A DNA stretch of 64,000 nt from a virus, in the IMG/VR virus record IMGVR_UViG_3300041809_000571, positions 243,841-307,840 of that record; one strand, 5' to 3'. Below are positions 1 through 46,355 of this stretch, piece after piece (within the stretch, counting starts at the first letter, position 1; each line of letters starts with the position of its first letter). The notes under the pieces are model-generated. The model was not told the origin of the DNA, did no database searches, and saw nothing but the letters and a program-made list of their open reading frames with translations. The position numbers and the translations under genes were made by a program.

Positions 1-462
1 ACCGTTGGGATAATGGGAGAAGATGAAGTGAAATTCCATCTGCTGGAACCCTTGGTCAATGGTGCGTTCAATGGCGTCGATATCCAGATGGGTATATTGC
101 TCATCGCAATCCGGCATGGATACCACATCATTGCTCGCCATGGTAGCAGAGTAGTTACGAGCGGCAGCGTAGTCAAAAAGTTTATCACCAGCGGCAACAA
201 TGGGGGTTTCAGGAGGTACGACAAACTGATTGTTGATGGCCTTGGCAAGATTCTCCGGGATGGTGAAGATAAATTTCTCCCCCACCTCAAAAACCGTGAA
301 GCCCAAAGCACGGGCTACAGCCGGGGTATTATCGGTGGACCCAGTGTCCACGAGGACCACCTCGCCGTGAAGCTTCTGAAATTCTTTGAGGGACTTGTGG
401 ATTCTCCAGAGGTTCGGAGCTTCATTTCTTGCTATGAGACAAACCGAAAACTTTACGCCCAT
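1..462 (-). CDS. Glycosyltransferase family 2 (GT-A fold), N-terminal part; gene continues beyond window start
   Basis: Minus-strand translation from ATG at 462 gives MGVKFSVCLIARNEAPNLWRIHKSLKEFQKLHGEVVLVDTGSTDNT...DCDE, the classic GT2 N-terminal signature plus DxD-like motif. The listed plus ORF 13..501 is its shadow. Confidence 0.55.
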   Translation of the reverse strand, partial: MGVKFSVCLIARNEAPNLWRIHKSLKEFQKLHGEVVLVDTGSTDNTPAVARALGFTVFEVGEKFIFTIPENLAKAINNQFVVPPETPIVAAGDKLFDYAAARNYSATMASNDVVSMPDCDEQYTHLDIDAIERTIDQGFQQMEFHFIFSHYPNG

Positions 463-582
463 GATTCTCCATTAACCGGGTTTGGACCGGTTATGGAATA
501 ATACTGTCTTTTGCCCGTTTTGTTTGGCCGCTGTTATTCGGTCCATTCCATGCCCCGGAATAGGCTGCTGTGCGGTGTTACC

Positions 583-1776
583 CTATAAACGTTGCCTATC
601 CACAATGGAGATTGAGGAGACTCCGGGGGAACCCGGTATGTAGTCTACGTACATCCCCATGAAGTCCACATCCACCATCTGGCTATTTGCATCAGTCTTG
701 CGGACCGCTACCGTGGGTGCCCCTAGAAAATCAACCCCTGTCGGGGATGGAAAACAAGGACCTAAATTGTGGGACCAGCCAACTTGGAAATTATTGATAG
801 CGGCTAGACCTTCATTATATCCAAATTCAAAACTTTGTCCACCTGCCACTTGGGAAGGGTTGGAGTCAACCCATACTCCTCCTGCCCGTGCAGTGAGTGT
901 GGGGGTTCCATCGTTGACCACAGCCTGCATGGCATTTATGGTACAGCTTCCGTCTATCTTAGCGGAGGTATAGGAGTTACATACAGCCTTATAATCCTGA
1001 TTTCCCGAGGCACTGAAATTATGTATCTGGCTTGTATTCGTAGCATTGGCATCCGACTTTCCTGCCGGGGGGATATTCTTGACCGCATTGAACAGGTTGG
1101 TTGCTCCTCCCCCTCCTGCCAGCCAAGAACCGGTGGATGAGTCTGCCGCAGCCGGGAGGAGGACAGAACCCCCCGCACCGAGGGTGACAGAAGAGTTGTC
1201 AACCAGTATGTCATCATAGTATGCTTCGAACCCGCCTACAGTGTCTGCGCTGGAACTACCGACGTTGAAAAGTGTCCCGTTAGAGGGGATAATAACTCCC
1301 GTAGTCTGCGAGGCCCATAGTACCCCGTCCACGAATACCTGTGCCCCATTTCCTGCGTTGTACCCAGCGTTCACGGCCATCAGATGCCAACCCCCATCCA
1401 CAGTCATGGCATTAGTGCTGTTGGCGGAATTGAGGGAACCAGCACGGACATAGAGAGTGCCGTTGGGGTTCATGCTCAAGGCTGCCACAGTTGGGCTACC
1501 CACTATAAATAGGTTCACAGCCGTGCCGGGGAGATGCAGCAGCTTGAAATAAAACCGGAAACTCTGGGCAAAGGCTCGTGGAGTTAAGGAGGAATCATAG
1601 AGAAAGTGTTGAGTGAAACCCAACTTTCCCGCTGGCAACTGGATGTGCATCCCATAGTTTCCAGTCCTTGCAGCGGCGGGTATTGCCTCAAGGGTCCCCG
1701 AGCTACCCGTTGTTGACCGTGCGGAACACTCGTAGATGCTTCCCAATTCCCAGCCAAGGATGTAGGTGTTGGACAT
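583..1776 (-). CDS. ConA/LamG-like jelly-roll domain protein (putative fiber accessory/receptor-binding protein)
   Basis: 397 aa. DGGWHLMAVNAGYNAGNGAQVFVDGVLWAS resembles the LamG/concanavalin-like core. Start abuts the stop of the fiber gene, consistent with co-transcription. Confidence 0.45.
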   Translation of the reverse strand: MSNTYILGWELGSIYECSARSTTGSSGTLEAIPAAARTGNYGMHIQLPAGKLGFTQHFLYDSSLTPRAFAQSFRFYFKLLHLPGTAVNLFIVGSPTVAALSMNPNGTLYVRAGSLNSANSTNAMTVDGGWHLMAVNAGYNAGNGAQVFVDGVLWASQTTGVIIPSNGTLFNVGSSSADTVGGFEAYYDDILVDNSSVTLGAGGSVLLPAAADSSTGSWLAGGGGATNLFNAVKNIPPAGKSDANATNTSQIHNFSASGNQDYKAVCNSYTSAKIDGSCTINAMQAVVNDGTPTLTARAGGVWVDSNPSQVAGGQSFEFGYNEGLAAINNFQVGWSHNLGPCFPSPTGVDFLGAPTVAVRKTDANSQMVDVDFMGMYVDYIPGSPGVSSISIVDRQRL

Positions 1777-4700
1777 TTACGCCTTCACGATGAACAAGTC
1801 AAGGTTCAGCCTTGTGACAGTTCCCGCAGAGTCTAGGTTGAACTCCAAGACATCTCCCGCCAAAAGAGAGGTGGTCCATGTCCCGATGTTAGTGCTGGTA
1901 TTAAACTGTTGAGGTCCTGTTAGATTTGGCGGGGCAGAAGCTACGATGCTGACAGTAGTAGGGAGCGATGCATAGGCACACTTCTTGACGGTAATCTGAG
2001 CAGTGCCGGAGGCATTCGCCAGCATAGTCCACCCAGTTATCGTGGCATTGTAAGGAACCTGTATGTACCCATACGAACCCGTTGAGGGGACTGACCCCTT
2101 CCCGTCGATAGTGAGCGTGATGATTTGATTCTGTGGAGAATATATCAGGACCACATTCTGCCAAGTCAACCCCGCAATGGTGGAGCCTGCAAAGCTGGAG
2201 ACATTGGCAATATCTTGAGCAATCCGCTGGGAAGGACCAGCCTCAAAAGCCATGCCGAGAATCGTTATCACTGGGGTTGTATTTGCGCAGTAAACTCCCG
2301 CAATCACGTTATCTGAACCGTCGCTATTGTTGAAGACCGTATTCCCGACGAGCTTTGTGTTCGAAGCGGCGGCAGCGATGTACCAACCATATTCCGTGGG
2401 GCTGTCAGCGTAGCAATTAGTCCAAGTACTGAATTGAGAGTTGTCGTAGAAACAAACAGCCATGGGGTTGGCGCTGGCCGGTGCTCCACCATAGGCATGG
2501 ATGTCGGTAAACCAGCAAGCACCTGTGTCGGTTCTGACACCCGTGGCGCATCCTACAATGACAGCAGTGTCAACACGATTGTCGGTAATAGCCCCCGTAC
2601 AGTATACTCCCGCACCAGCAGCGGTAGTCGCTGCATAAACATGGACATTTTCCAAATAGCATTCGAATCCACCCGACCCGTGAACCGGGAAGTCCGTAAT
2701 GTCCCCAATCAGGAAGCCATTGGTCGTTGGGTACTTAACGTAGGTGTCTTTGATGGTGAAGTGCCTGCACGAGCGTACATATACCCCATTTGCGGCCAAG
2801 GCATTGCAATTAATCACGCCCCCGACCATGTTTGTACCCGGAAGGTTGACTGCTACCGTAGGCCCGACGATTAGGACTGCGTCCATAGCAGAGGAAGCAA
2901 TGAGTTGTGCTCCGGGGTCCATGACTAGGTTAACATTGTAAGGTATGATGATATGACTGGCCAGCAGGAATTGACCGGCTGGGACATAGACAGTACCACC
3001 TGAACTGAATGCCGCTGCCGCTGTCATAGCTGCATTGAATGCGACAACGTTATCAGTGCTTCCGTTCCCCACAGCCCCGTAATTCAAGACGTTAAATGGG
3101 TAGTCTACGAGGGGGCCATTTGGCCCCGTCCACCCGGTGTAGCCTGTATATCCTGTGGGTCCGGTATAACCGGTAACTTGAGGTCCCGTATATCCTGTGT
3201 ATCCACTGATTCCCATAGGTCCCGTATAACCCGTGGGTCCGGTTCCTCCCGGTCCTGTCGGACTGGTATAACCCGTGGGTCCGGTTCCTCCCGGTCCTGT
3301 CGGACCGGTATATCCGATGTATCCTGTATAACCGGTATACCCGGAGTAACCGGTTGGTCCTGAGTAACCCGTGGCTCCGGTATAACCTGTGTAGGCTCCG
3401 GGTCCTGTATACCCGGTATAGCCTGTAAATGCTCCGGGGCCAGTGGGACCGAGGGGTCCAGTATATCCTGAATAACCAGTATAACCAGAGGTACCTGTAT
3501 ATCCAGTATAACCTGTAAAGTTACCGGGACCGGTGGGACCCGTTGGACCGGTGTAACCAGTAACACTCGGGCCTGTGTATCCGGTGTACCCACTCTGACC
3601 CGTATAACCGCTCGGACCTGTGAAACCTGTGCTGCCGGGTCCTGTGTACCCCGTAAAACCAGTGAAGTTGCCTACACCCGTGGGACCCGTGTAACCCGTG
3701 GCTCCATCCGCTCCTTGATGCCCGATAGGTCCGGTGTAACCGGTGTCGCCTTGGAATCCTCGATAACCGCTATAACCCGTGTATCCGGTGAAACCCGTAA
3801 AGTTACCGGGACCAGTTGGACCGGTTGAACCCGTGTACCCCGTAACGGCGGGTCCGGTGTAGCCAGTCGGCCCACTCGGGCCGGTGGGGCCGGAATACCC
3901 CGTATACCCTGTAATGGTGGGTCCAGTGTATCCGGTCGGTCCAATGGGTCCAGTCGGCCCTGAATACCCCGTAAAAGCTCCGGGGCCGGTAAATCCCGTG
4001 TATCCCGTAAAACCCGTGAAATTGCCCGGACCGGTGGGTCCGGTCGTACCTTGCGGTCCCGTGTACCCCGTCCAGCCTGTAAAGTTGCCGGGGCCGGTAT
4101 AGCCCGTAGCTCCACTATAGCCGGTGAATCCTGTGAAATTACCCGGACCGGTTGGACCGGTTGTACCAGTCGGTCCAGTATACCCCGTTATCGAGGGTCC
4201 AGTGTATCCTGTGTAACCGGTTCTTCCGGTGTAACCGGTGTAACCCGAGTAACCGGTAAAATTGCCCGGACCGGTTGCTCCCGTATATCCGCTGTATCCC
4301 GTAGCTCCCGTGAAATTCCCCGGACCGGTAGGTCCTGTAGCCCCCGAATATCCCGTAAATCCTGTGAAATTTCCGGGTCCAGTCGGACCGGTGTAGCCGC
4401 TCGTTCCCGTGTAACCCGTATAACCTGTAAATGCTCCGGGACCAGTGTATCCCGTATATCCAGTGATACTGGGGCCGGTGTAACCGGTGACCCCCGCCGT
4501 CCCGGCTCTGCCGGTGTACCCGGTAGCTCCCGTGGGTCCCTGAAAACCTTGATACCCGCTGTAACCTGTGGCTCCCGTGGCTCCGGTATAACCCGTAAAA
4601 TTACCGGGACCCGTGGGGCCGGTTGCCCCGGTCGGTCCCAAATTTCCGCTATAGCCGGTATAGCCCGTGAAATTACCGGGACCCGTCACCCCCGTGTACC

Positions 4701-5556
4701 CTGTAAACCCTGTGAAATTCCCCGGCCCGGTGGGGCCGGTGAACCCACTGGCTCCCGTAAAACCCGTATACCCGGTTGCTTGTGGTCCCGTATAGCCCGT
4801 GAAGCCTGTGTACCCCGTGCTCTCAGGTCCAGTATAGCCGGTATACCCAGTTGGCCCAATCGGTCCTGTATACCCTGAATATCCGGTAAAATTGCCCGGA
4901 CCGGTGGGTCCCTGCTGACCGGTGTACCCGGTCATTCCGGTGTAACCCGTGTCCCCGCTATAACCTGTAAACCCTGTGTATCCAGTGAAGTTCCCCGGTC
5001 CCGTGGGTCCAATTGAACCAACAGGCCCGGTGTACCCAGTAAAACCCGTGAAGTTTCCGGGGCCAGTGGGGCCGCTGTCCCCCGTATAGCCCGTGAAACC
5101 GGTAAAATTGCCCGGTCCAGTAGGTCCGGTCGTTCCTGTATATCCTGTTATGCCGGGTCCAGTAGGTCCGGTCGGCCCAGAATCACCCGTGTAGCCGGTC
5201 GGACCCGAATATCCGGTAAAATTGCCCGGACCGGTGTAACCCGTGAAACCGCTGGGGCCGCTGTAGCCGGTATACCCTGTAAAGTTTCCCGGTCCTGTGG
5301 CACCGAGCGGGCCGGTGGGTCCGGTCGTGCCGGTCACACTTTGGGCAATAAGACCCCACCACGTGGAGCCGACGAAGGGGGTGTTACCCCGGTTGTTGTT
5401 CTGGAGAGAAATCCACGAGGAACCGTTGTAAGTGAGGGCGTTGCCAAACTGATAGGTGATGGTATTATTCCACGGCTTCACATACGTGACGAGGATGCCG
5501 TCGATAGTGAAAACGGAGTTGGGGCTGACCGGGTCTATGACTCTGATAGCTGGCAT
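1777..5556 (-). CDS. Collagen-like repeat tail fiber with C-terminal pectate-lyase-like right-handed beta-helix (putative depolymerase fiber)
   Basis: 1259 aa. About 780 aa of G-X-T triplets ([13 protein letters not shown] units), then a C-terminal [42 protein letters not shown] stretch typical of the Pectate_lyase_3 / tailspike beta-helix. The nucleotide sequence is highly repetitive (ccggtaaaattgcccggaccggt units). Confidence 0.8.
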
Positions 5557-6119
5557 TATCTCAGTCGGGGAGGCCAGTGAATCCGCTTGCTCTTCTTTTC
5601 AGCAAGCGAGGGGTAGTCGTTCTCCGCCTCCCAGTCCCTTGTAAGATTTGTCGGGTTTTTCACATTCTGGTGCTGCTCGAACGGCTCTGCCGTGTCGTCA
5701 ATGTTCTTCTGGTTCTCCCGATTGGCAATCGCCTCTGAACCGTTGAAAATCTCTCCCTGCGTCTGCCCCGAGACATCGTACCCGTATGCCTTCTTGCTGC
5801 GCTGGAGGGCCGCTACGACGTTCTGGAGCTTCCAGACGGCGTGTAGCTGGCTATCCGCCGCTGCGCCCCAATCTCCCGACTTGGCGAAGGCATTAGCGGT
5901 CTCCATATCCCAGCGAGCAAAGCGGATATCTCTGGTCAGCCGACTCTTGGGGGGAATCTTTGCCGATACGGTATTGATGGCGGAGCCAAGATGCTGACGG
6001 GCTTCGAGATAAGCGGCACGGTCGTTTCTTGTGTCACCCGAGAGAAGGGAGTAGAGGGATTCCAGATAACCGGGTTCAGTCAGGACAGCCGTCTTCGGAC
6101 ACAACAGCGGGTTGCGCAT
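5556..6119 (-). CDS. hypothetical protein
   Basis: 187-aa ORF. Stop overlaps the ATG of the fiber gene (ATGA-type overlap). No recognisable motif. Confidence 0.4.
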
Positions 6120-6162
6120 AGTTTTCCCTCTAAATAGAATCTGAAAAGACGGAACTTACTGG

Positions 6163-6519
6163 TTAGGCTTGGGGTGGGGGAGTAGCGGAGGAGGCAACAT
6201 CTACAAGTGTCTGAAAGATTGGGTCTTTCGACAGTGGCTCGGGAGCCGGGGTGGAGGGCGGTTCAGGAGGGGGAGCGGGGGGAGCTTTCACGATGGGGTT
6301 ACCCTCAAGGTCGGTCACCGTGGCGGTGATGTCAATGACCTGTGGGCGTTGAAGCAAGCGGAGGACGACCCCATTACGTTGCAGGTCTTGATACTCACGT
6401 ATCCCGGAGCCGGGCGGAATGGTCTGCACCTCGGCGAGAGAAACGAAAATTTCATACTCTCCCCCGGCGAGGTGGGTTCCATATTTCTTGATGATAGCAG
6501 CGACCGTGGCGGGGTTCAT
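6163..6519 (-). CDS. hypothetical protein, Pro-rich C-terminus
   Basis: 118-aa ORF; 4-nt overlap with the downstream metallophosphoesterase ORF. Confidence 0.4.
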   Translation of the reverse strand: MNPATVAAIIKKYGTHLAGGEYEIFVSLAEVQTIPPGSGIREYQDLQRNGVVLRLLQRPQVIDITATVTDLEGNPIVKAPPAPPPEPPSTPAPEPLSKDPIFQTLVDVASSATPPPQA

Positions 6520-7262
6520 CTCTCGAACACCACTGGAGGGTAGGGACCCATCTGCTTGCGCTCGTGGGGGTAGCCATAAGGGTTACAAACCACGGGCGTT
6601 TCTACGAACATGGTTCGATTGGGAAGGTGGGTATGTCCGTAGACCCACAGGGCGGGCTGGGCGATGCCAATGACGGGGTCCATGTTACAGACGAAAAACC
6701 GGTTGAGGGCGTCTCCTTGGAATACAGGAGCGACGGCGGTGTAGGAGGGGACATGGTGCGTGAGGACGACGGTGTCTCTCTTGATATGATTTTTTGCGGC
6801 TTCCACAAAATAGGAGTTGCTGGCGTATACCCATTTTTTGAACCCCTTGATGACGAGAAAATCAGACAGACCGTCTTCGTACATGAGGTTGCGGGAACTG
6901 TAGGGAAACCACATCGTACCGCCAAAGAAGTGCTGACCGTCGATGGTCACAGAGGTGTCCCGGAGCCAGTGGAAGTTGGAAGGCAGAGCGGCTTCAATGA
7001 GTGCCTCCACCGTCTCCTTGTCTCCATGGTAGTACTCGTGGTTACCGGTCACATAAAGCACATGCCGGGCCTTGCTGCCGAGGAATTCAAAGATGTCCCG
7101 GATGGTGGTCTTGCTTTTAGGAAAGGGCTTGGAGCAGGGGACTACGATGTCGCCGGGGAGGAGTAGGAAATCAAGGTCCGGCTCGAACGTCAGCTTCTCA
7201 AGCATTTTGAGAGGGAAGGCGTGGAACTCGGTGTGCAGGTCGGACATCAATTGAAATTTCAT
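6516..7262 (-). CDS. Calcineurin-like metallophosphoesterase
   Basis: Motifs LLLPGDIV, VTGNHEYY, VLTHHVPSY and YGHTHLPN match the MPP signature (GDxxD / GNHE / GHTH). Confidence 0.8.
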   Translation of the reverse strand: MKFQLMSDLHTEFHAFPLKMLEKLTFEPDLDFLLLPGDIVVPCSKPFPKSKTTIRDIFEFLGSKARHVLYVTGNHEYYHGDKETVEALIEAALPSNFHWLRDTSVTIDGQHFFGGTMWFPYSSRNLMYEDGLSDFLVIKGFKKWVYASNSYFVEAAKNHIKRDTVVLTHHVPSYTAVAPVFQGDALNRFFVCNMDPVIGIAQPALWVYGHTHLPNRTMFVETPVVCNPYGYPHERKQMGPYPPVVFER

Positions 7263-7454
7263 CGTCTGCCTTATAATACTGAAAAACGTAGGTGTTTATT
7301 GCTTGCAACCTATACCAGTCTCCCGTGTGGGCGGCTATTTTACGTTCCTCCAAAATGGTGGACCACGGGGTATCTTCAAGGAGATTAAAGTTTTCTTGCG
7401 TCATGAAAGGCAGGAGACAGTCGGGGATTGTATCCACATATTGCATTGGATAGT

Positions 7455-7531
7455 TGGAGCGGGCGATGGGATTTGAACCCACGACATCCAGCTTGGGAAG
7501 CTGGCGTTCTACCGGACTGAACTACACCCGC
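7455..7531 (-). tRNA. tRNA-Gly(CCC), solitary, CCA encoded
   Basis: Hand-folded cloverleaf: acceptor GCGGGUG/CGCCCGC, D-stem GUUC/GAAC, anticodon arm CCAGC-UUCCCAA-GCUGG, T-arm GUGGG-UUCAAAU-CCCAU, U73, CCA. Confidence 0.7.
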
Positions 7532-7540
7532 ATATATAAG

Positions 7541-7572
7541 GGTTCGGTAGCCTGTCTATACAAACAGGCTAC
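7541..7572. other. 9-bp stem-loop (GTAGCCTGT / ACAGGCTAC) followed by TGTTTTG on the plus strand; possible terminator or processing hairpin between the vWA gene and tRNA-Gly
   Basis: Perfect 9-bp inverted repeat with an 8-nt loop, read directly from the sequence. Confidence 0.35.
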
Positions 7573-8204
7573 TGTTTTGCCGCCTTCCGTTGGGCGGAAG
7601 TGAACGACGCCTTGAGACCACGCCGGACGGCGCTGGTGTTGGCGCTTACGGCGAGGTACACTTCCTGAGTGGAAGCGGAGTTGTTGTTGTAGGTCATGGA
7701 GGTATCGGCGGAGATGTTGAACCCCTTGGCGGTCAGAACGGCGTCCTGATTGGCTCCCAAGAAGATGAAGGTCCAGTTGTACTTCTCTGTCTGGTGCTTC
7801 ACCATGTTCGCCACATTTTCCTTCGTGAATTCCTTGCTGGCGTTCTCATGACCATCCGTGAGGATGACGATGATGACTTTCTCCGGGCGCTCCTCTTCCG
7901 GCATCTTTTCCAGCCGCTCACCAACCTCGATAATCGTCCACCCCATGGCGTCATGCAGGGGGGTGTTCTCCCGTGGGGAGAAGGTGTCCTTGGTCAGATT
8001 TGGAACGTCCGCCAAAGGTGCGTCGATGACGATTTCGTGGGGGTCAATGGAGTCAAACTGGACCAACAGGAGATGGGCTTCGCCGGGCTGCTGCTTCTGC
8101 CCATTGATGAACTCGTTGAAGCCGTCGATGGTCGCATCCTTGACGATGCTCATGGAACCGGAACGGTCTAAAACTACGGCGATAAATGCGGAATCGGATT
8201 TCAT
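7569..8204 (-). CDS. von Willebrand factor type A (vWA) domain protein
   Basis: MIDAS-like DRSGSMS near the N-terminus and IIVILTDGHEN in the vWA fold. Strong RBS AAGGAGG upstream of the ATG at 8204. Confidence 0.7.
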   Translation of the reverse strand: MKSDSAFIAVVLDRSGSMSIVKDATIDGFNEFINGQKQQPGEAHLLLVQFDSIDPHEIVIDAPLADVPNLTKDTFSPRENTPLHDAMGWTIIEVGERLEKMPEEERPEKVIIVILTDGHENASKEFTKENVANMVKHQTEKYNWTFIFLGANQDAVLTAKGFNISADTSMTYNNNSASTQEVYLAVSANTSAVRRGLKASFTSAQRKAAKQ

Positions 8205-8615
8205 ATGCCTCCTTGAATTTGGACGGGGACCAACAAGTCAGCGTCGTGGGTCCTAATCAATAATCGCAACAACAGCGACCACAAACGACCAATCACAACT
8301 ACCAACTAAAGTAAGGTTCGACCCGATAGGGTAGCCTTGTTCACCATCCTACAATCTTTATCGTCGGCGGAATTGGAAGTGAGCCGACTATCCGCACTCT
8401 TCTTGCGGCCCCCGGTAACTAATACTGCTGGAGAACCTCATAGAGCTTGTTGCAGAGGTTCTCCAGCTTGCCTCGATTGGAATGAGAAGGGGCGGGAACC
8501 TGTGGTCGGGTTGCGTCCAAGATAAACTGCAAGCACGAATGGCAACCCGCTGCCTCTTCCCTATCGAGAGTGATGGTAACCGACTTCCTGAGTTTGACGG
8601 TCAACGTAGCCTCCG

Positions 8616-8955
8616 TTAACGTCGCTTTTTCGGAACACTGCTGACGCCCACGGCGGGGGTAAGCTCGCCGAGGACATCCTCATCCATCTCGTAACCAATG
8701 ACCGGAGTCTCTGCGTTGGTCGCCTTGATGGCGGCGTCCAGCTTGCGCAGTTCACGGGACAGGTGGGAAATCAGGCTGTCCAGAGCCACGACATCGTAAA
8801 GCGGATTGACTGTCTCTGGGGTGTCACCCTTGAGGCCACGATAACTGGTCCGGCTGGCAGAATTCTCGTTGCGCAGACTGATGAGTTCCTGATGCCGCTC
8901 TTGCAGGGTCTTCTTCCAAGTCAATGCCTCATTGATGGTGATTTGCTTTGTTGCC
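8616..8955 (-). CDS. hypothetical protein (113 aa)
   Basis: Internal start MATKQITINE... is preceded by AAAAGGAGAACCA. The longer 203-aa ORF to 9227 has an implausible low-complexity N-terminal extension. Confidence 0.45.
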
Positions 8956-9696
8956 ATTGGTTCTCCTTTTGAGTTGGTGCGTGACTCACGTTCTAACGCC
9001 ACGGCGTAGTGAGCGCAAACAGAGGGAGTTGCCGCCCGCTCCAGTGGCTCGGTAAAAGAGTTACTAGCTCGGCTCCCATTGCTGAGTAAATCCGTGGTCA
9101 AGCAGCGCTGATTCGCATCACGCACCAAGCTATAATACTGAAAATTTTGTGGACCTATAAGCGGAGTTCTGTGCCTCTTGCGAGGTGACAACCATTCGTC
9201 TAGGGCGGCCATTACTGGACGCCTCAAGCTCTCAACCCGAGGGTTATAGCGAACCGAGCAGGTTCATCCCCTCCTATTCGAGATTGCTCCCCGTGAAGAT
9301 TGCCCGTTTCACCCGGACTTAACCGGCTCGTCTCTGTTGCTCTAATTGTCGCAGTATTGCTACTGCGCCGGGGCGTTACCCCGCACGGTGCTCTGTGTAG
9401 CTCCGACTTTCCTCTCCCCCTTGCGGGGCAGTAGTTGTCCAGTCCACAAACTTTTTCCAAACTTAGGGTTATTGGGAGCGAAGATTCCCTTGGAGCCATC
9501 CGGGTCAAGGGCCTTCAAGGTCAGATAATAACTCATGCTCCCAATGCTCACGCCGTCACCTTACACCCACAAGGTTCATAATCCTGTTGCCAGCCGGGCG
9601 GTATACTCTTCATCCACCCCTTGACCTTGACCCTTACGGTACATGGCTTTTTGTGCTTACGGTGTTTGCATTTAGAACATTTGGCGGAGGCCATAC

Positions 9697-9909
9697 TTAC
9701 CCACCCAACGGTTCAGCCCCTAAAGACATTGCAAGGGCTGTAATTTTATTAACCGTCAACGTCGCCAAGTCCAAAGTTTTACCCATCATCTCAATTTGGG
9801 CTTGAGTCCACGTGGATGCATCAACGGCGTCGTTATTCCAAGAGATTTGGAGTTTACCCCTTGCTGAAACTAATTGCTTACGAACCTCTAAGATTCCTTC
9901 TAACGTCAT
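9697..9909 (-). CDS. small hypothetical protein
   Basis: ATG at 9909 (MTLEGILEVRK...) lies about 25 nt downstream of the GGTGGTATTATATAG promoter-like motif. The listed GTG start at 9939 overlaps that motif. Confidence 0.3.
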   Translation of the reverse strand: MTLEGILEVRKQLVSARGKLQISWNNDAVDASTWTQAQIEMMGKTLDLATLTVNKITALAMSLGAEPLGG

Positions 9910-9971
9910 TTGAAACCCCCAAGACAAAAGTACCCACACTATATAATACCACCGAGAGTCAAAAATGATGG

Positions 9972-10640
9972 TTATTTAATTTCTCTTGCTTTTTCATAGA
10001 CCGCTCGAATGCTCGCAAAGCGTTCTCTGGTAGACAGGGTATGCGGGTGGTAGGTGATGATATCGTTTTCCGGGAGGGGCATCCTCCCCTCCGTCATACT
10101 ATAACGGTCGTCATGCTCCGTGGGGCAGACGCTATTGAACGATAATGTTGCCCATACCCACCAGTCCTCGACATTGTAACAACGGGTGTCCCTTGAACAA
10201 GGCGCTGAGGCGAGGAACTCCAACGCCCTCCTGCTAAGCCAGTACCCGGAGCCTCCATAGGGCTGGTTGTTTCCCCCCACTCCCCGTTGTCCTATATGGT
10301 CATGCCCCTCGAATCCCGAGCGGAGCAGACGGGGAACGCAGGCATAGGTGTCAACATCACATTTGAAAGCGTGGTCATAGCCGTGGGCTACCACCCACTG
10401 GTATGCAGCTTGGACCTTGGACGAGAGGTCCGCATACGTGTCGGAAACATCTAATGAGACCTCATCGTCATCTGCATTCTCTAGTCTAGGATTACCTAGA
10501 AAAAAGCGATAATCAACTGGGCACCCCATCAACCATGTTTCCCTGAGTTGCTGCTGCCAATGACGATGGGCATGGCAACTCATGATGGATATCAGCGGTT
10601 GCAACTGCTCACCCCCACCCTTAAGTGGTTTCCATACCAA
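9972..10640 (-). CDS. Putative Fringe-like (GT31-type) glycosyltransferase
   Basis: Acidic DxD-like ADDDEVSLDVSD plus PYGGSGYWLSRRALEFL resembling the Fringe GGAGFCISR motif. Weak, motif-level only. Confidence 0.4.
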   Translation of the reverse strand: MVWKPLKGGGEQLQPLISIMSCHAHRHWQQQLRETWLMGCPVDYRFFLGNPRLENADDDEVSLDVSDTYADLSSKVQAAYQWVVAHGYDHAFKCDVDTYACVPRLLRSGFEGHDHIGQRGVGGNNQPYGGSGYWLSRRALEFLASAPCSRDTRCYNVEDWWVWATLSFNSVCPTEHDDRYSMTEGRMPLPENDIITYHPHTLSTRERFASIRAVYEKAREIK

Positions 10641-10643
10641 ACC

Positions 10644-11066
10644 CTATGCGCTTCCTACGGCAAACACATTCAAGTAGGCACGATAAATCTCGTAAGCGGC
10701 ACTGTTACCACTCGTACATCTTACACGAAGGTCATAAACGTCTCCTTCGTTCATGATGTCAAGACCCCCTACGGAAATGGGGAACCCTGTGGGGTCAGAG
10801 TTCTCAGCAATCAGATAATTCATCAAACTGCCATTTTTGAATACGGCCAATTGAAAATCCCCACTTCCAGTAACCGCCGTTACAAAAACAGCAATCATTA
10901 CGGGAACCGCAAAAGACACGGTTGAAGTAAGGGAACCCGTCGTGGTGTTCCCAGTCATTCCTGAGTTTTGAACGACGGTCCACGAAGCCTGCTCAAACTG
11001 ATACCACGTATCTTCCGTGTCCAAGGAAAGAGTCTGATACCCTGTAGCTGTCTCACCGTATGTCAT
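10644..11066 (-). CDS. hypothetical protein (possible beta-sandwich fiber-tip protein)
   Basis: 140-aa ORF with no clear motif. Confidence 0.35.
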   Translation of the reverse strand: MTYGETATGYQTLSLDTEDTWYQFEQASWTVVQNSGMTGNTTTGSLTSTVSFAVPVMIAVFVTAVTGSGDFQLAVFKNGSLMNYLIAENSDPTGFPISVGGLDIMNEGDVYDLRVRCTSGNSAAYEIYRAYLNVFAVGSA

Positions 11067-11607: not shown

Positions 11608-11961
11608 TGGTGGAGGCGACGGGGAGTTGAACCCCGTGTCCGAAAAGTGTCACAACAAGAAGACTACACGCTTATCCTGCTTCGTACTGCTCTTTGCCAT
11701 GACTCTGCTGAAACAGGCATATCAGAACCACGGTGCAAGCCTTCATCTCGCCGGATATCGGCTACATCCCCGGTCGCAGCCTCTCTATCGGCGCTTGGCC
11801 TCTACCCGACAGGCTAAAGCAGAGCAAGCGTGCCTAATCTAGCGATTAAGCAAATGCATATTGCGCTGTGGCAATTGCGTTGTTAACCCTTGTTACGGGC
11901 AGGGTAACCTCCCGGCGTGCCTTCCTGTAATGAGCGCTCCCGTCGAAACCAGAACGCCCCC
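11608..11961 (-). ncRNA. ssrA: tmRNA (ssrA-like transfer-messenger RNA), about 354 nt, CCA encoded
   Basis: Minus-strand 5' end GGGGGCGUUCUGGUUUCGACGGGA matches the tmRNA consensus GGGGnUGAUUCUGGAUUCGACGGG. The 3' end GGACACGGGGUUCAACUCCCCGUCGCCUCCACCA is a tRNA-Ala-like T-arm/acceptor with G3:U70, A73 and CCA. A candidate internal tag frame reads AAC AAC GCA AUU GCC ACA GCG CAA UAU GCA UUU GCU UAA (...NNAIATAQYAFA*). Confidence 0.8.
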
Positions 11962-12185: not shown

Positions 12186-12260
12186 TTGGTAGCCCTGCCG
12201 GGACTCTAACCCGGTTCCGCTGGTTGAAAGCCAGCCATCCTAAACCATAGACGACAAGGC
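12186..12260 (-). tRNA. tRNA-Glu(UUC)
   Basis: Acceptor GGCCUUG/CAGGGCU (two G-U pairs), anticodon arm GCUGG-CUUUCAA-CCAGC, T-arm CCGGG-UUAGAGU-CCCGG, A73-CCA. The D-arm resembles E. coli tRNA-Glu. Confidence 0.6.
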
Positions 12261-12412
12261 CAGAAATTTGAGGCTGCGAAATATCCACGTTTGGGAGTAC
12301 AAGGACCGGTAGCAGCCTCGGTTTATCGGTACCCACTACGTGGCTCAGTTTAGACCGCCGTCCTGATACGACCACGATTGAAACCTGCGGTCAAGGTGTA
12401 TCGTGGCCTCGC

Positions 12413-12487
12413 TTGGAGCACCCGGAGAGAATCGAACTCCCGCATAAAGGGTTTGCAGCCCTCTCCCTTCCCACTTGGGTACGAGTG
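12413..12487 (-). tRNA. tRNA-Cys(GCA)
   Basis: Acceptor GCACUCG/CGGGUGC, anticodon arm GAGGG-CUGCAAA-CCCUU, T-arm GGGAG-UUCGAUU-CUCUC, U73 (Cys identity element), CCA. Confidence 0.7.
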
Positions 12488-12570
12488 CAAATTTGGCTCG
12501 CCTACCACTCTCTCAGTGGCTTTGAACCGTGCGGGCAGCTTTCACCGCCGCAGGCTATCTGGCTCGCAAT

Positions 12571-12645
12571 GTGGAGCACCTGAACGGAATCGAACCGTTG
12601 CATAGCTGTTTTGCAGACAGCCGCCTTTCCACTTGGCGACAGGTG
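12571..12645 (-). tRNA. tRNA-Cys(GCA), second divergent copy
   Basis: Acceptor GCACCUG/CAGGUGC, anticodon arm GCUGU-CUGCAAA-ACAGC, T-arm AACGG-UUCGAUU-CCGUU, U73-CCA. Confidence 0.7.
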
Positions 12646-12647
12646 CG

Positions 12648-12881
12648 TTATTCTTCTTCCTCAGCCGACTCCTTACTTAGGTCCACCGGCTGGCGAATCT
12701 TGGCAATCTTTCTTTCGGTGGATACGGAGAGTCTCACGTACTCCACTCGTGCCCAATGGACGGTGTGAACCGCCATCCACCCGACCACCACCCATTTAGA
12801 AAAGATGGTGAAAATCCTGTCGGGGTTGATGCTTATAAACCAAAGCACCACGCACATAAACCAATGCCACAAAGAAATCAT
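12648..12881 (-). CDS. small hydrophobic protein (2 predicted TM helices) embedded in the tRNA array
   Basis: 77-aa ORF MISLWHWFMCVVLWFISI...FTIFSKWVVVGWMAVHTV with a GGGAGG RBS 4 nt upstream. It sits exactly in the gap between tRNA-Cys and tRNA-Glu. Confidence 0.35.
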   Translation of the reverse strand: MISLWHWFMCVVLWFISINPDRIFTIFSKWVVVGWMAVHTVHWARVEYVRLSVSTERKIAKIRQPVDLSKESAEEEE

Positions 12882-12931
12882 CTAGCCTCCCGTCATGCAG
12901 TGTGTTCCCCCAAAGCATGGCGGGGGTGAAA

Positions 12932-13008
12932 CTGGTAGCCCCGGTGGGATTCAAACCCACGGTCTCCGCCTTGAGAGGGCGGCGTCCTTGGTCGCTAGAC
13001 GACGAGGC
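12932..13008 (-). tRNA. tRNA-Glu(CUC)
   Basis: Acceptor GGCCUCG/CGGGGCU, anticodon arm CCGCC-CUCUCAA-GGCGG, T-arm GUGGG-UUUGAAU-CCCAC, A73-CCA. Confidence 0.65.
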
Positions 13009-13079
13009 CATGTCTTAGCAGGGCACGACTGGCTACGATGAGTTTATGTCAGCGGGAAGCCTGATTCTGTGCCCTAAGT

Positions 13080-13155
13080 TTGGTGGACGGGAAGGGAGTT
13101 GAACCCTCAGTCTCTCGGGTGCGAGCCGAGCGCTTTCCCAGTTAAGCTACCTGCC
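13080..13155 (-). tRNA. tRNA-Ala(CGC)
   Basis: Acceptor GGGCAGG/CCCGUCC with G3:U70 (Ala identity) and one A5-C68 mismatch, D-stem GCUU/AAGC, anticodon arm CUCGG-CUCGCAC-CCGAG, T-arm GAGGG-UUCAACU-CCCUU, A73-CCA. Confidence 0.65.
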
Positions 13156-13160
13156 CAAAT

Positions 13161-13290
13161 GCAATCGTGGAGGGAATCGAACCCTCTCTCCTGTTGCAGC
13201 CTGCAAGCCGCTACAGTTCTTCCCCCCGTTACTTCCAAAGCCAGACAGCCTTCGGTCTTGCAGGACCTATTGCCATCTCGGGGGCTGAAA
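13161..13290 (-). ncRNA. Unresolved structured RNA with a perfect tRNA T-arm (GAGGG-UUCGAUU-CCCUC at 13169..13185) but no identifiable 7-bp acceptor partner or encoded CCA
   Basis: The T-arm is seen directly. Searches for a 5' acceptor strand complementary to CACGAUU failed, so this may be a type-II, intron-containing or degenerate tRNA. Confidence 0.3.
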
Positions 13291-13291
13291 C

Positions 13292-13367
13292 TTGGTGCGC
13301 CGAGCAGGACTCGAACCTGCGACCTCTTCCGTGTCAGGGAAGCGCTCTAACCACTGAGCTACCAGCG
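13292..13367 (-). tRNA. tRNA-Val(GAC)
   Basis: Acceptor GCGCUGG/UCGGCGC, D-arm GCUC-AGUGGUUA-GAGC, anticodon arm CUUCC-CUGACAC-GGAAG, T-arm GCAGG-UUCGAGU-CCUGC, A73-CCA. Confidence 0.7.
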
Positions 13368-13468
13368 CAAACGCATGGATTTCCCTACGGTCGCCTAGAC
13401 CCCGTCTGTTTATGTACTGCTTTGCGGGGCACTGCTACTGGTTAGCTCGCTACTAGGGCCATGCGTAA

Positions 13469-13546
13469 AATGGCGGTCCATACGGGATTTGAACCCGTGG
13501 TCTTCTCCGTGACAGGGAGACGAGGACTCCAGACTCCTCCAATAGA
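13469..13546 (-). tRNA. tRNA-Asp(GUC)
   Basis: Acceptor GGUCUAU/AUGGACC, D-stem GAGG/CCUC, anticodon arm UCUCC-CUGUCAC-GGAGA, T-arm ACGGG-UUCAAAU-CCCGU, G73 (Asp-type), CCA. Confidence 0.7.
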
Positions 13547-13552
13547 CCGAAA

Positions 13553-13631
13553 CTTGGCGGTGAGTACGGGATTTGAACCCGTGTTTCTACCGTGACAGGG
13601 TAGTGTCTTAGGCCGGGCTAGACCAACCCAC
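13553..13631 (-). tRNA. tRNA-Asp(GUC), second divergent copy in tandem
   Basis: Acceptor GGUGGGU/ACUCACC, anticodon arm CUACC-CUGUCAC-GGUAG, T-arm ACGGG-UUCAAAU-CCCGU, G73-CCA. Confidence 0.65.
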
Positions 13632-13723
13632 CGTAATCGGACCCTATTAACCCGCTCATGGGCGGAGGCTTTCGCCGGGGCGGCACATAGCACAAATACT
13701 ATCCCGTTCGTATGCCGCTAAAC

Positions 13724-13798
13724 TTGGTGGACCTAAAGGGAATCGGACCCTTGACCTCTCGGCTGCCGACCGAGCGCTCTCCCGCTGAGCTACAGGCC
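13724..13798 (-). tRNA. tRNA-Ala(GGC) (C at position 33)
   Basis: Acceptor GGGCCUG/UAGGUCC with G3:U70, D-arm GCUC-AGCGGGA-GAGC, anticodon arm CUCGG-UCGGCAG-CCGAG, T-arm AAGGG-UCCGAUU-CCCUU, A73-CCA. Confidence 0.55.
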
Positions 13799-13960
13799 CA
13801 CAAAAATTCGGGACAACCGGCTGGTTAGGCTAGTCATCCGCAGGTTCTACTGCTCGGGGTCCCTTTTCAGGGGAACCACCACAGTCCCCCTTACTGAGGG
13901 ACCCTGCTGGTAGAACCTCGCCACTCGTCAGCTTCGACAGCCCTTAGAGTGACTACAATC

Positions 13961-14034
13961 TTGGAGCGGGTGACGGGACTCGAACCCGTCTCTACAGCTT
14001 GGAAGGCTGCGGCACAACCTCTATACCACACCCG
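13961..14034 (-). tRNA. tRNA-Gly(UCC)
   Basis: Perfect acceptor GCGGGUG/CACCCGC, anticodon arm GCAGC-CUUCCAA-GCUGU, T-arm ACGGG-UUCGAGU-CCCGU, U73-CCA. Confidence 0.7.
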
Positions 14035-14125
14035 CAAATCTTGTGAGGACATTGACGCAGCCCCCTGTTTACGTTGACCGGCGTGTCAGAGCCGGTGTCC
14101 TGCCGCTGGACCTCAGCGGACTTAC

Positions 14126-14199
14126 TTGGTGGAGCTACGGGGATTTGAACCCCGATTCCTTGCGTGCAAGGCAAGTGTCCTGCCGTTAGACGATAGTCC
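14126..14199 (-). tRNA. tRNA-Ala(UGC)
   Basis: Acceptor GGGACUA/UAGCUCC with G3:U70 and one A4-C69 mismatch, anticodon arm CUUGC-CUUGCAC-GCAAG, T-arm CGGGG-UUCAAAU-CCCCG, A73-CCA. Confidence 0.55.
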
Positions 14200-14204
14200 C
14201 AAAC

Positions 14205-14279
14205 TTGGAGCGGGCGGTGGGGTTCGGACCCACGACCTCTTCCTTGGCAAGGAAGCATTCTACCACTGAACTACGCCCG
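14205..14279 (-). tRNA. tRNA-Gly(GCC)
   Basis: Perfect acceptor GCGGGCG/CGCCCGC, D-arm GUUC-AGUGGUA-GAAU, anticodon arm CUUCC-UUGCCAA-GGAAG, T-arm GUGGG-UCCGAAC-CCCAC, U73-CCA. The overall sequence closely resembles E. coli tRNA-Gly(GCC). Confidence 0.75.
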
Positions 14280-14351
14280 CAAACCGCCAAGTAGGTTCTT
14301 AACCAATATGCATCGGGTCTTGGACCGTTCCTGCATTACCCTTGGCGAAAT

Positions 14352-14430
14352 ATGGTGCGCCGTGAAGGAATTGGACCTTCGACCTCTCGCTTGTGGAGCG
14401 AGCGCTCTAAACCGGGCTGAGCTAACAGCG
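14352..14430 (-). tRNA. tRNA-Val(CAC) (C at position 33; long D-loop)
   Basis: Acceptor GCGCUGU/ACGGCGC, D-arm GCUC-AGCCCGGUUUA-GAGC, anticodon arm CUCGC-UCCACAA-GCGAG, T-arm GAAGG-UCCAAUU-CCUUC, A73-CCA. Confidence 0.55.
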
Positions 14431-14438
14431 CATCGAAC

Positions 14439-14513
14439 TTGGTACCCACTGAGAGAATCGAACTCCCGACATCCTCCTTGTAAGAGAGGCGGTCTTCCAC
14501 TGGCCTAAGCGGG
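14439..14513 (-). tRNA. tRNA-Val(UAC)
   Basis: Acceptor GCCCGCU/AGUGGGU (two G-U pairs), anticodon arm CCUCU-CUUACAA-GGAGG, T-arm GGGAG-UUCGAUU-CUCUC, A73-CCA. Confidence 0.6.
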
Positions 14514-14526
14514 CAAATCTTGTACT

Positions 14527-14917: not shown

Positions 14918-15229
14918 TCAGGATTTTGAGGAAAAAAGTTTTCCTTCCTTCGCCCGGATGACATGCTCTCGGAGGTCATTCACCCTGTAGACCCCATACA
15001 TCCACAAAACACCTTGAATAAACCCTATCCACCGATTGACCTTAGCCTCATCATAATGCTCGGCTTTAGTGCCGTTGGCGTAGTTGAACATCTCCTCCAC
15101 CATCCACGCAGCGTGACGGGCCTGCTCGATACCGGGGTGAGGGCTTTTCGGCTCACCCTCAAGCCGTTGGGGCAATATCCACAATCGTTGGAACTCGCTC
15201 CGGTAGAACTCTAACAATTGGTATTCCAC
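14918..15229 (-). CDS. hypothetical protein
   Basis: 103-aa ORF. Its N-terminal 70 nt overlap the NADAR gene, so the true start may be the internal Met (MVEEMF...) near 15103. Confidence 0.35.
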   Translation of the reverse strand: MEYQLLEFYRSEFQRLWILPQRLEGEPKSPHPGIEQARHAAWMVEEMFNYANGTKAEHYDEAKVNRWIGFIQGVLWMYGVYRVNDLREHVIRAKEGKLFSSKS

Positions 15230-15683
15230 CCTGTGCCTCCGCTCGTATGAGCATCAAAATCTTACCTAAGTAGTTGTATTTCTGTTTCTTAGCACACTTG
15301 GCACAAAGGCAAATGCCCCAAAAATTATCGTGCCAATAATTGGTTTCCTCCAACACCATATAGCCGGTTCCCACCAGCTTGAGAAGGAGGAAAGTGTTCC
15401 TAAACTTCTGCCGGACGAGTTCCTCCATGATGTTAATGTTTACACTGTACCAAAGCGGCCACAGATGCCCAGCTTTGGTCAGTTTTTTGGCGAGCTTCTT
15501 TGCTTCGCCGGGGGTCATCCCGACAGCCCGGAACTGCTCCCGGATAGTGGGGTCAAGGAACTTGGCGGCTTGATAGGCGTGCTCTACCGAGGCGTACTCC
15601 AGCCCGTACAGATACACCGGGCAGGGGTAGTAGAAATTGGAACAGAAATCGAGAACCCCGGAGAACGCTATATCACGCCACAT
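15159..15683 (-). CDS. NADAR-domain protein (YbiA/DUF1768 family)
   Basis: Diagnostic NADAR motifs: FCSNFYYPCPVYLYGLEYASVEHAYQAAKF and EETNYWHDNFWGICLC...KYNYLGKILMLIRAE. Confidence 0.8.
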   Translation of the reverse strand: MWRDIAFSGVLDFCSNFYYPCPVYLYGLEYASVEHAYQAAKFLDPTIREQFRAVGMTPGEAKKLAKKLTKAGHLWPLWYSVNINIMEELVRQKFRNTFLLLKLVGTGYMVLEETNYWHDNFWGICLCAKCAKKQKYNYLGKILMLIRAEAQGGIPIVRVLPERVPTIVDIAPTA

Positions 15684-28899: not shown

Positions 28900-28901
28900 T
28901 C

Positions 28902-31647: not shown

Positions 31648-31655
31648 GAGGAAAA

Positions 31656-34613: not shown

Positions 34614-34614
34614 T

Positions 34615-40016: not shown

Positions 40017-40041
40017 ACAAATAGCCTGATTGTTTTAACTT

Positions 40042-40055
40042 TTTGCCCGAGATGC
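40042..40055 (+). promoter_or_regulatory. Promoter-like motif ATGCAGTATTGTCC (plus-strand version of the CAGTATTAT family) upstream of the lysis cassette
   Basis: About 107 nt upstream of the RlpA-like gene, in the first sizeable intergenic gap of the structural block. Confidence 0.3.
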
Positions 40056-40161
40056 AGTATTGTCCAACTATGGAATGTAAAACTGTATGCACTCTAGTCA
40101 GCCCGTCTGGACGGAAAGGAGAGTAAGAAAAGGCGGAATTTCGTAGTAAAAAGGAGGAAAT

Positions 40162-41901: not shown

Positions 41902-41917
41902 TTTTCCTCCTCAATTC

Positions 41918-42472: not shown

Positions 42473-42530
42473 TTGAAATCCTTTGACTTTGCTCCTACTA
42501 ATTAGATGGAAAGTCTCGGCGTAGGTGCCT

Positions 42531-46346: not shown

Positions 46347-46355
46347 GATAAACCC

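Follow-up and report, generated by a model that had tools for sequence, protein, structure and literature searches.

A glycosyltransferase gene between two collagen-like genes

The window analysed in this study is a 64,000-nucleotide stretch of viral DNA (IMG/VR record IMGVR_UViG_3300041809_000571, positions 243,841 to 307,840), and at its beginning lies a group of genes in which predicted glycosyltransferases (GTs) are found together with a collagen-like fibre. Every gene in positions 1..11066 is on the minus strand, and the genes are tightly packed (Table 1). The preliminary description of this DNA was therefore accurate in placing both GT genes, the LamG-domain gene, and the fibre gene on one strand. 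In the direction of transcription, the fibre gene is followed by the LamG gene, whose start codon comes immediately after the fibre stop codon, and 120 nt past the LamG gene begins a family 2 GT (GT2) gene that continues off the window. The other GT gene, which belongs to family GT31, is 4.4 kb away from the fibre gene, with five protein genes, a tRNA-Gly gene, and an RNase P RNA gene in between. The earlier remark that the GTs bracket the fibre is thus a loose one, since the GT31 gene, with unrelated genes between it and the fibre, does not truly do so.

The same phage is present on a 364,142-bp metagenomic contig (locus L001), which was retrieved by an exact look-up of the LamG protein and is 99.95-100% identical to the window at the nucleotide level, save for one 54-nt repeat-number difference in the fibre gene. 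On this contig the complete GT gene (L001:11315-14998) encodes an enzyme of 1227 aa and is directly followed by a second collagen-like gene (L001:15035-17329), all on one strand. The GT gene is therefore flanked by collagen-like genes, with the fibre and LamG genes on one side and the gene for a 764-aa collagen-like protein on the other. A megablast search of window positions 1-11100 against GenBank phages gave no match. In a scan of positions 1-12500, promoter and terminator counts were no better than in shuffled sequence, and operon boundaries are therefore not definable.

Domain organisation of the 1227-aa enzyme

The portion of the enzyme that lies in the window comprises part of the first GT2 domain alone. 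This fragment scores 48.1 bits for PF00535 (Glycos_transf_2), where the cut-off is 23.3 and the complete protein reaches 46.0 bits; it also matches PHROG 13126, annotated as 'beta-1,4-glycosyltransferase', with an E value of 1.3e-13. The residues of its nucleotide-binding and DxD motifs (D39, S42, D44, D118, D120, and E121), all of which are inside the window fragment, are invariant across 25 homologues. Because the Pfam score is above the cut-off and the invariant aspartates and the DxD-E motif are kept, the earlier prediction of a GT2 enzyme at this position is confirmed at the sequence level. A ribosome-binding site, GGAGAA, is located 4 nt ahead of the ATG at position 462.

The full enzyme contains a GT2 domain (residues ~1-235), a TPR domain (~235-395), a Methyltransf_24 domain (~400-575), a middle region whose sole match is a weak one to GT-D (~575-800), a GT32-like Caps_synth/Gly_transf_sug domain (~800-1000), and a probable second GT2 domain (~1000-1227). 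The profile matches themselves cover residues 6-58 and beyond for GT2 and 264-309 for TPR. Neither an N-terminal signal sequence nor a multi-span membrane region was detected in the enzyme, the highest 19-aa hydropathy value being 1.73 at an internal position, residue 745. Among GT domains of solved structure, the nearest by sequence are those of GmaR and SunS, albeit with weak E values (5e-4 to 6.5e-3). GmaR glycosylates flagellin, and SunS glycosylates the sublancin peptide. In GenBank phages, a tblastn search with the GT core found only GT2-TPR genes of 24-28% identity, in jumbo phages (PaBG, Lu11, and Erwinia phages) and in DSL-LC01. Protein searches gave 271 homologues of the enzyme, and a scan of IMG/VR yielded 550 stretches with a confirmed match, in many cases to the methyltransferase domain only. 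In one relative (L012), the large enzyme is 70% identical to that described here.

GTs encoded in the fibre region of pelagimyophages are customarily taken to act on the host surface (PMC7029224), and the preliminary description had offered seroconversion as an alternative. The GTs of this locus could likewise make a free polysaccharide or change the host surface, with seroconversion of the O-antigen or capsule, or superinfection exclusion, as the outcome. In fact, the PHROG families matched by the GT2 fragment are labelled 'moron/auxiliary' and 'GtrB-like O-antigen conversion' (PHROG 841, a weak match with E 0.0016), and PF05704, which the GT32-like domain matches, is a capsule-synthesis family. 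However, neither a signal peptide nor a GtrB-like multi-span membrane region was detected, and no flippase or polymerase (Wzx/Wzy) and no GtrA or GtrC partner was found among the genes called within 10 kb. The phage also appears to be lytic, and the genes are not beside an integrase. In addition, a protein acceptor is favoured both by the TPR domain and by homology to SgtA-type O-glycosyltransferases, and an action on the host surface would leave the association with collagen-like genes, described below, unexplained. We found no specific support for seroconversion and regard a role at the host surface as improbable.

Relationship to SgtA of Clostridioides difficile

The glycosyltransferase SgtA of C. 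difficile is a 358-aa protein with a GT-A domain (residues 1-260) and TPR repeats (262-358), and the gene encoding it lies immediately upstream of bclA3 (PMC7157674). The recombinant enzyme transfers N-acetylglucosamine (GlcNAc) in β-O-linkage onto Thr, and also Ser, of collagen-repeat peptides in vitro in a Mn2+-dependent manner (PMC7157674). A scan of prokaryotic genomes, with one genome per species, identified GT2-TPR relatives of the phage enzyme in metagenome-assembled genomes (MAGs) of Clostridia. One of them encodes a 363-aa GT2-TPR protein that aligns over its whole length with residues 3-375 of the phage enzyme (30% identity, E 2e-41), and in this MAG a gene for a 510-aa BclA-type collagen protein with GPT repeats begins 4 nt downstream of the GT2-TPR gene. 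As read from the genome sequence, the clostridial pair has the size, the architecture, and the gene order of C. difficile SgtA.

Collagen-like proteins and their partners

The fibre begins with an N-terminal domain of 75 aa, which is followed by a collagen region (aa 76-816; nt 3109..5331); a pectate-lyase/tailspike-like domain starts at aa 821, and the protein ends with a C-terminal domain of ~110 aa. It scores 164.8 bits for the Pfam Collagen repeat and 51.4 bits for PF12708 (pectate-lyase-like), and it matches PHROG tail-fibre, tailspike, and virion-structural families. As many as 72% of its triplets are G-X-T and 15% are G-X-S, with Tyr dominant at X (63 GYT and 33 GPT triplets). By our own estimate, at ~0.29 nm per residue, the collagen region would form a triple helix of ~210 nm. 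A C-terminal C1q/TNF-like trimerisation domain was not found on the fibre polypeptide, which ends in the pectate-lyase-like part. In comparison with L001:6167-10000, the fibre of the window has an 18-aa (54-nt) block difference in the collagen repeats and two substitutions; the block may be either real repeat-number variation or an assembly artefact.

The collagen repeats are punctuated by the motif GPGNFTG, 17 copies of which are present in the fibre. It places an Asn in the position of the triplet glycine and forms an N-X-T sequon. The motif also occurs in the second collagen-like protein and in many collagen-like open reading frames (ORFs) beside GT homologues, with up to 13 copies. No clear correlation was seen between the GNFTG motif count in neighbouring collagen genes and the accessory domains of the GTs. 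The motif may be a kink, a docking site for an enzyme, or a glycosylation site; that it carries N-linked glycans is a speculation on our part.

The second collagen-like protein has an N-terminal domain of the same kind as the fibre, GPGNFTG-punctuated repeats, and two internal globular domains that are homologous to the 140-aa protein encoded first in the direction of transcription (32-35% identity with collagen protein 2 of L008 and L009, E 2e-13 by blastp). As only two homologues were found, the AlphaFold2 (AF2) model of the 140-aa protein is weak, with a modest mean confidence (predicted local distance difference test, pLDDT, of 63). In Foldseek this model matched the N-terminal lectin of BC2L-C, gC1q domains, the NC1 domain of collagen X, and the C-terminal domain of BclA (E 7e-5 to 7e-4), and these jelly-roll matches agree with the homology just described between the 140-aa protein and the second collagen-like protein. 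Taken together, the model and the homology give a coherent picture of the 140-aa protein as a putative stand-alone C1q/TNF-like jelly roll, which recalls the globular heads of BclA and of collagens VIII and X. The LamG protein just passes the Pfam cut-off (PF13385, 27.7 bits against 27.6) with an N-terminal LamG/concanavalin-A-like lectin domain. A homologue of 59% identity is found in the equivalent position in L008, L009, and L011, and the protein is probably a fibre-associated adhesin or assembly partner.

GT2-TPR genes are associated with collagen-like genes

For the neighbourhood analysis, up to 10 kb of flanking sequence on each side was scanned for collagen-like ORFs, defined as those with at least 45 aa in runs of at least six G-X-Y triplets, and loci that match the methyltransferase domain only served as controls. 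In both collections together, 48 GT2-TPR loci out of 64 have a collagen-like ORF on the same strand within 10 kb, in comparison with 2 out of 95 control loci. The numbers are 38/50 against 1/29 in the viral contigs of IMG/VR (Fisher p = 9e-11) and 10/14 against 1/66 in the genome contigs; as the loci share ancestry, the Fisher p value overstates their independence, which weakens the case. Clustering of the GT modules at 60% identity gives 40 clusters, 29 of which still have a collagen neighbour. All 38 collagen-like ORFs in IMG/VR are on the strand of the GT gene, 34 of them within 3 kb and seven within 40 nt. The collagen partners of the phage enzymes have Thr at the Y position in a fraction of 0.45-0.93 of their triplets, and most are rich in Tyr at X.

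The pairing recurs in L003, a 60-kb contig of an unrelated phage, and in the GenBank record of the Actinomycetia phage DSL-LC01, where two collagen genes, a YHYH protein gene, and a halogenase-like gene are followed by a 358-aa GT2-TPR gene. The paper describing DSL-LC01 does not mention its collagen-GT pair. The halogenase-like gene (L088:6433-8004) belongs to the tryptophan-halogenase family (PF04820, 171 bits) and lies, with the YHYH-domain gene, between the collagen-like genes and the GT2-TPR gene. Judged by its family and position, the predicted halogenase could be another fibre-modifying enzyme.

The same neighbourhoods bear on a second explanation, namely that the enzymes glycosylate capsid, tail, LamG, or host proteins and that their adjacency to collagen genes arises from a shared build-up in the variable fibre region of large phages. 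Known cases of phage virion glycosylation do concern capsid and tail-tube proteins (of mycobacteriophages, as cited in PMC12619734), the gene cluster of L003 sits between portal and major capsid genes, and a quarter of the GT2-TPR loci are without a nearby collagen gene. However, the association is specific to collagen-like ORFs, which are all on the GT strand and often only 17-40 nt away, while control loci from the same collections are nearly devoid of them. Furthermore, the association still holds at identities as low as 28-30% in Clostridia, whose collagen partner is a BclA-like spore protein rather than part of a phage fibre region. A target other than the collagen-like proteins is therefore an unlikely, albeit serious, alternative to the glycosylation of the fibres.

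A GT31 enzyme of less certain role

The second GT, described earlier as Fringe-like, required a profile for its assignment, since single-sequence searches were unproductive: the match to PF01762 (Galactosyl_T) scores 18.8 bits, below the cut-off of 23, and searches of the PDB and NCBIfam with the single sequence gave nothing useful. A profile of the query and nine homologues (10 sequences), searched against the PDB, matches solely GT31 enzymes, i.e., C1GalT1 (E 1.6e-10), B3GALT6 (4.5e-8), B3GLCT, B3GNT2, and B3GALT5. In Foldseek, the AF2 model (pLDDT 81.6; predicted template modelling score, pTM, 0.84) gives GT31 catalytic domains at ranks 1-34, including Manic Fringe (2j0a, E 1.4e-6), which is not among the very first matches; the capsid-glycosylating A64R of PBCV-1 (E 1.6e-6) and the collagen galactosyltransferase COLGALT1 likewise rank lower. 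The DxD motif is D95-V-D97 in 'FKCDVDTY'; D97 is invariant, and the P0007-P0009 subgroup lacks the first Asp. Because profile, fold, and DxD tests agree, the GT31 assignment is considered correct. The term 'Fringe-like' is right at the family level, and the closest matches are β-1,3-Gal/GlcNAc transferases. The start codon is a TTG at 10640, 4 nt past the upstream stop codon; since the first β-strand comprises aa 15-20, translation must start upstream of the internal ATG.

How this enzyme relates to the fibres is less clear. In L012, a GT31 domain fills the middle slot of the large enzyme and is homologous to the protein of the window by hhalign (probability 99%, E 7.6e-18), which amounts to a gene-fusion link between GT31 and the large enzyme. 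Between the portal and capsid genes of L003, and of four or five viral contigs like it, lies a cluster that contains a GT31 homologue together with several collagen-like genes, a GT2-TPR gene, and genes for a sugar epimerase/dehydratase, a prolyl-hydroxylase-like 2-oxoglutarate (2OG)-Fe(II) oxygenase, a DUF4422 protein, and a C-methyltransferase. Over all the GT31-homologue loci in IMG/VR, however, a collagen-like ORF within 10 kb was found in 8 of 35 (10 of 35 by sequence homology). The homologues P0003 and P0005 are on contigs of 3.6-4.7 kb, whose contexts are uninformative.

It is therefore possible that only the large GT2-TPR enzyme serves the collagen fibres, whereas GT31 acts on another acceptor, either a virion protein or a glycan, and is a mere neighbour. 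The recurring neighbours of the GT31 homologues, which are an NAD-dependent epimerase/dehydratase and families read as portal and major capsid proteins (from their sequences, with no profile check), are consistent with such a separate job, as are the distance of the gene from the fibre in the window and the unrelated genes between them. Likewise, 27 of the 35 loci have neither a collagen-like ORF nor a GT2-TPR gene within 10 kb, a result that also counts against a common glycosylation system. On the other hand, the fusion in L012 and the clustering of GT31 with collagen and GT2-TPR genes in the lineage of L003, L193, L195, L201, and L202 connect it with the fibre enzymes, and the rate of 8/35 is still about ten times that of the controls. 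We consider a separate job for GT31 a real possibility, though we do not favour it. Participation of GT31 in the glycosylation of the fibre, as a candidate glycan-extending enzyme, is plausible from its gene context but not established.

The gene for the predicted oxygenase mentioned above (PF13640; L003:10645-11397, and L201/L202:11632-12618) immediately follows that for the GT31 homologue. Both belong to a cluster that also holds three collagen-like genes and that is flanked, in an unrelated phage, by the portal and capsid genes. The location of the oxygenase gene beside collagen-like genes hints at a possible collagen hydroxylation in phages.

Phage GTs are classically DNA-modifying enzymes, which makes a hypermodification of the phage DNA with sugars the default reading in reviews. 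However, no genes of a hydroxymethyl-pyrimidine pathway are among the ORFs scanned, GT2-TPR and GT31 are outside the known families of DNA glycosyltransferases, and the association with collagen-like genes would remain unexplained. We give this explanation hardly any weight.

Other features of the window

The remaining window has genes for ribonucleotide reductase, DnaB-like helicase, Baseplate-J protein, and lytic transglycosylase, besides those for many very large proteins without a family match, a gene content that fits a highly divergent jumbo phage. A run of such very large proteins is located upstream of the 1488-aa Baseplate-J protein and marks the divergence of the phage lineage; its sole PHROG match is a weak one, phrog_38322 (unknown function), for the 1912-aa protein. 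A homing-endonuclease-like gene was found within the structural block, and a NADAR-domain protein is also encoded (Table 1).

Table 1. Position of the genes and other features in the window; features of positions 1..11066 are listed first, in the direction of transcription.
Feature	Position	Strand	Remarks
140-aa protein	10644..11066	-	first in transcription direction
222-aa GT31-family protein	9972..10640	-	earlier 'Fringe-like GT'
RNase P RNA gene	9142..9450	-	Rfam RF00010, 191 bits, model positions 1-367 (full length, bacterial class A)
Small gene	about 8670..9011	-	
VWA-like protein	7569..8204	-	
tRNA-Gly(CCC)	7455..7531	-	between metallophosphoesterase and VWA genes
Metallophosphoesterase	6516..7262	-	
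Protein without assigned function	6163..6519	-	
Protein without assigned function	5556..6119	-	
Collagen-like fibre, 1259 aa	1777..5556	-	Pfam Collagen and PF12708
LamG-domain protein, 397 aa	583..1776	-	PF13385
GT2 gene start (154 aa, continues off window)	1..462	-	PF00535
tmRNA	11608..11961	-	Rfam RF00023, 124 bits; missed by ARAGORN
Array of 14 tRNA genes	12187..14514	-	
NADAR-domain protein	15159..15683	-	PF08719, 62.9 bits
Run of very large proteins	25513..52094	+	788 to 1912 aa, no Pfam match
Homing-endonuclease-like gene	59605..60537	+	PHROG 314

Several RNA genes are present. Because of their overlap with the RNase P RNA gene, the mechanically predicted ORF 9224..9508 and the N-terminal part of ORF 8616..9227 are spurious and not genes. 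The paper on 'huge phages' mentions transfer-messenger RNAs (tmRNAs) but never RNase P RNA (PMC7162821), and an RNase P RNA encoded by a phage may be unusual; the present phage also encodes a tmRNA. There are fifteen tRNA genes, i.e., the lone tRNA-Gly(CCC) near the fibre and an array of 14, which serve nearly exclusively GNN codons (Gly ×2, Ala ×3, Val ×3, Asp ×2, and Glu ×2, plus Cys ×2). The codon usage of the fibre gene shows no notable difference from that of other genes and no obvious match to the phage tRNAs, and therefore nothing ties the nearby tRNA-Gly specifically to the fibre.

Discussion

The analyses described above demonstrate which domains are present, that the enzyme is homologous to SgtA-type enzymes, and that its gene neighbourhood is conserved. 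On the basis of these comparisons, we propose that the locus represents a phage counterpart of the BclA/SgtA system known from spore-forming bacteria, with which the phage would glycosylate its own collagen-like fibres. We place the probability of this proposal somewhat above one half (roughly 0.55), and the serious alternatives are that the enzymes act on other virion proteins or that GT31 has a separate job. The preliminary description had suggested a fibre glycosylation module made up of both GTs. With respect to the GT2 enzyme this suggestion is well placed, given its location between two collagen genes, its SgtA-type homology, and the neighbourhood ratio of 48/64 to 2/95, whereas most GT31 homologues do not have collagen neighbours. 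It had also called self-glycosylation of a fibre by a phage unusual. While such systems are rare, the glycosylation of capsid and tail-tube proteins in mycobacteriophages is already documented (cited in PMC12619734).

From the domains and the known activity of SgtA, we infer as follows what the acceptor and the sugars are, in which order the steps take place, and how the phage benefits. Late in infection, very long collagen-like fibres (the 1259-aa fibre and the 764-aa second protein) would be made, in whose triple helix the Y position is nearly always occupied by Thr or Ser. The GT2-TPR module of the adjacent soluble 1227-aa enzyme would bind the collagen repeats through its TPR domain and move the first sugar from a host nucleotide-sugar to the hydroxyl groups of Thr and Ser in the cytoplasm, as SgtA of C. 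difficile does on BclA3. The fused methyltransferase, GT32-like, and second GT2 domains, and possibly the separate GT31 enzyme, may then extend and O-methylate the glycan. The likely benefit would be a stabilised triple helix of ~210 nm that is free of hydroxyproline, and a fibre that is shielded from proteases or from recognition. In the cuticle collagen of Riftia, glycosylated Thr at the Y position reportedly stabilises triple helices without hydroxyproline.

Several observations weigh against this proposal. The support for fibre glycosylation comes entirely from comparative genomics, and the link to SgtA runs through clostridial MAG proteins of like architecture and through synteny rather than through the SgtA sequence itself. 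No collagen-like ORF is present within 10 kb in 12 of the 50 viral GT2-TPR loci, including L010, a syntenic relative of 52% identity, nor within 8 kb of the GT2-TPR gene of Pseudomonas phage PaBG. GT2-TPR enzymes can act on other proteins, as GmaR does on flagellin. In addition, sugar-nucleotide genes, for which the preliminary description had suggested a look past position 1, were found neither among the ~30 window ORFs scanned nor in the 10 kb beyond that position.

A broader and more tentative idea, which we hold with less confidence than the proposal for this locus, is that many large phages carry such a self-glycosylation system, which has so far gone unrecognised. In these phages, an SgtA-like initiating GT2-TPR module fused to variable 'assembly-line' domains (methyltransferases, GT32-like, GT31, and a second GT2) would place methylated oligosaccharides on Thr/Tyr-rich collagen fibres and give 'hairy', glycoprotein-clad particles reminiscent of Bacillus and Clostridium spores or of Mimivirus. 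The system might share a common origin with the bacterial BclA/SgtA pair, and GPGNFTG might serve as a second, N-linked attachment site or as a docking site for the enzyme.

In the literature, we found no report that links the collagen-like fibres of phages to dedicated phage glycosyltransferases. What is already known is the O-glycosylation of collagen repeats by a GT2-TPR enzyme in C. difficile and virus-encoded virion glycosylation in chloroviruses, mimiviruses, and mycobacteriophages. If the proposal is correct, the latter phenomenon would extend to a widespread group, and the receptor-binding structures of many uncultured large phages would bear glycans that are ignored by sequence-based predictions of host range and structure. 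A Thr-glycosylated collagen of ~200 nm without hydroxyproline would be a new natural case of glycan-stabilised triple helices, and the fused enzymes would serve as compact and soluble tools with which to glycosylate collagen-like biomaterials. The BclA/SgtA biology of the spore surface would also be linked evolutionarily to phages. As fibre-region glycosyltransferases are usually assumed to be O-antigen modifiers, the locus provides a concrete and testable alternative.

Comparison with known systems

The closest counterpart is SgtA/BclA3 of C. difficile. Both systems combine a GT2 (GT-A) domain with subsequent TPR repeats, an enzyme gene that adjoins a G-X-T collagen-like gene on the same strand, and collagen-like proteins with C1q/TNF-like globular domains. 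However, the one belongs to a spore coat and the other to a jumbo phage, in which the GT2-TPR unit forms the N-terminal portion of a 1227-aa fusion protein that also contains a methyltransferase and two or three additional GT-like domains. The phage repeats are rich in Tyr (GYT) and periodically interrupted by GPGNFTG, in contrast to GPT, and the phage fibre ends in a pectate-lyase-like domain, with the C1q/TNF-like domains on separate proteins. Listeria GmaR and SunS of SPbeta are also GT2 enzymes with helical-repeat substrate-binding domains that glycosylate polypeptides in the cytoplasm, but their similarity to the phage enzyme is weak, and their substrates are flagellin and a bacteriocin peptide.

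Among viruses, mycobacteriophages also encode GTs that modify their own virion proteins; these are reportedly single-domain GTs, and the targets are the C-termini of capsid and tail-tube subunits rather than collagen repeats (Freeman et al. 2023, as cited in PMC12619734). The lysyl hydroxylase-glucosyltransferase L230 of Mimivirus and Marseillevirus, a viral enzyme, glycosylates a viral collagen-like protein (PMC9614988), and the related phage locus L003 has a prolyl-hydroxylase-like oxygenase beside its GT31 homologue. L230 acts on hydroxylysine, whereas the window fibre is nearly without Lys and no oxygenase was found nearby, and the enzyme families differ.

With two GT domains and one methyltransferase domain, the chlorovirus enzyme A064R builds a glycan of the capsid (PMC9614988). 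Like A064R and A111/114R of PBCV-1, the phage enzyme is a virus-encoded, soluble, cytoplasmic multi-domain protein with GT and methyltransferase domains, apparently for the virus's own structural protein (PMC9614988), and domain 1 of A64R is among the fold matches of the GT31 model. There is no detectable sequence homology between A064R and the large phage enzyme. While A064R belongs to a eukaryotic virus and elongates an N-glycan carried by its major capsid protein, the likely acceptor of the phage enzyme is Thr or Ser in a collagen-like fibre of a bacterial virus, and a presumed initiating module is included in the same polypeptide.

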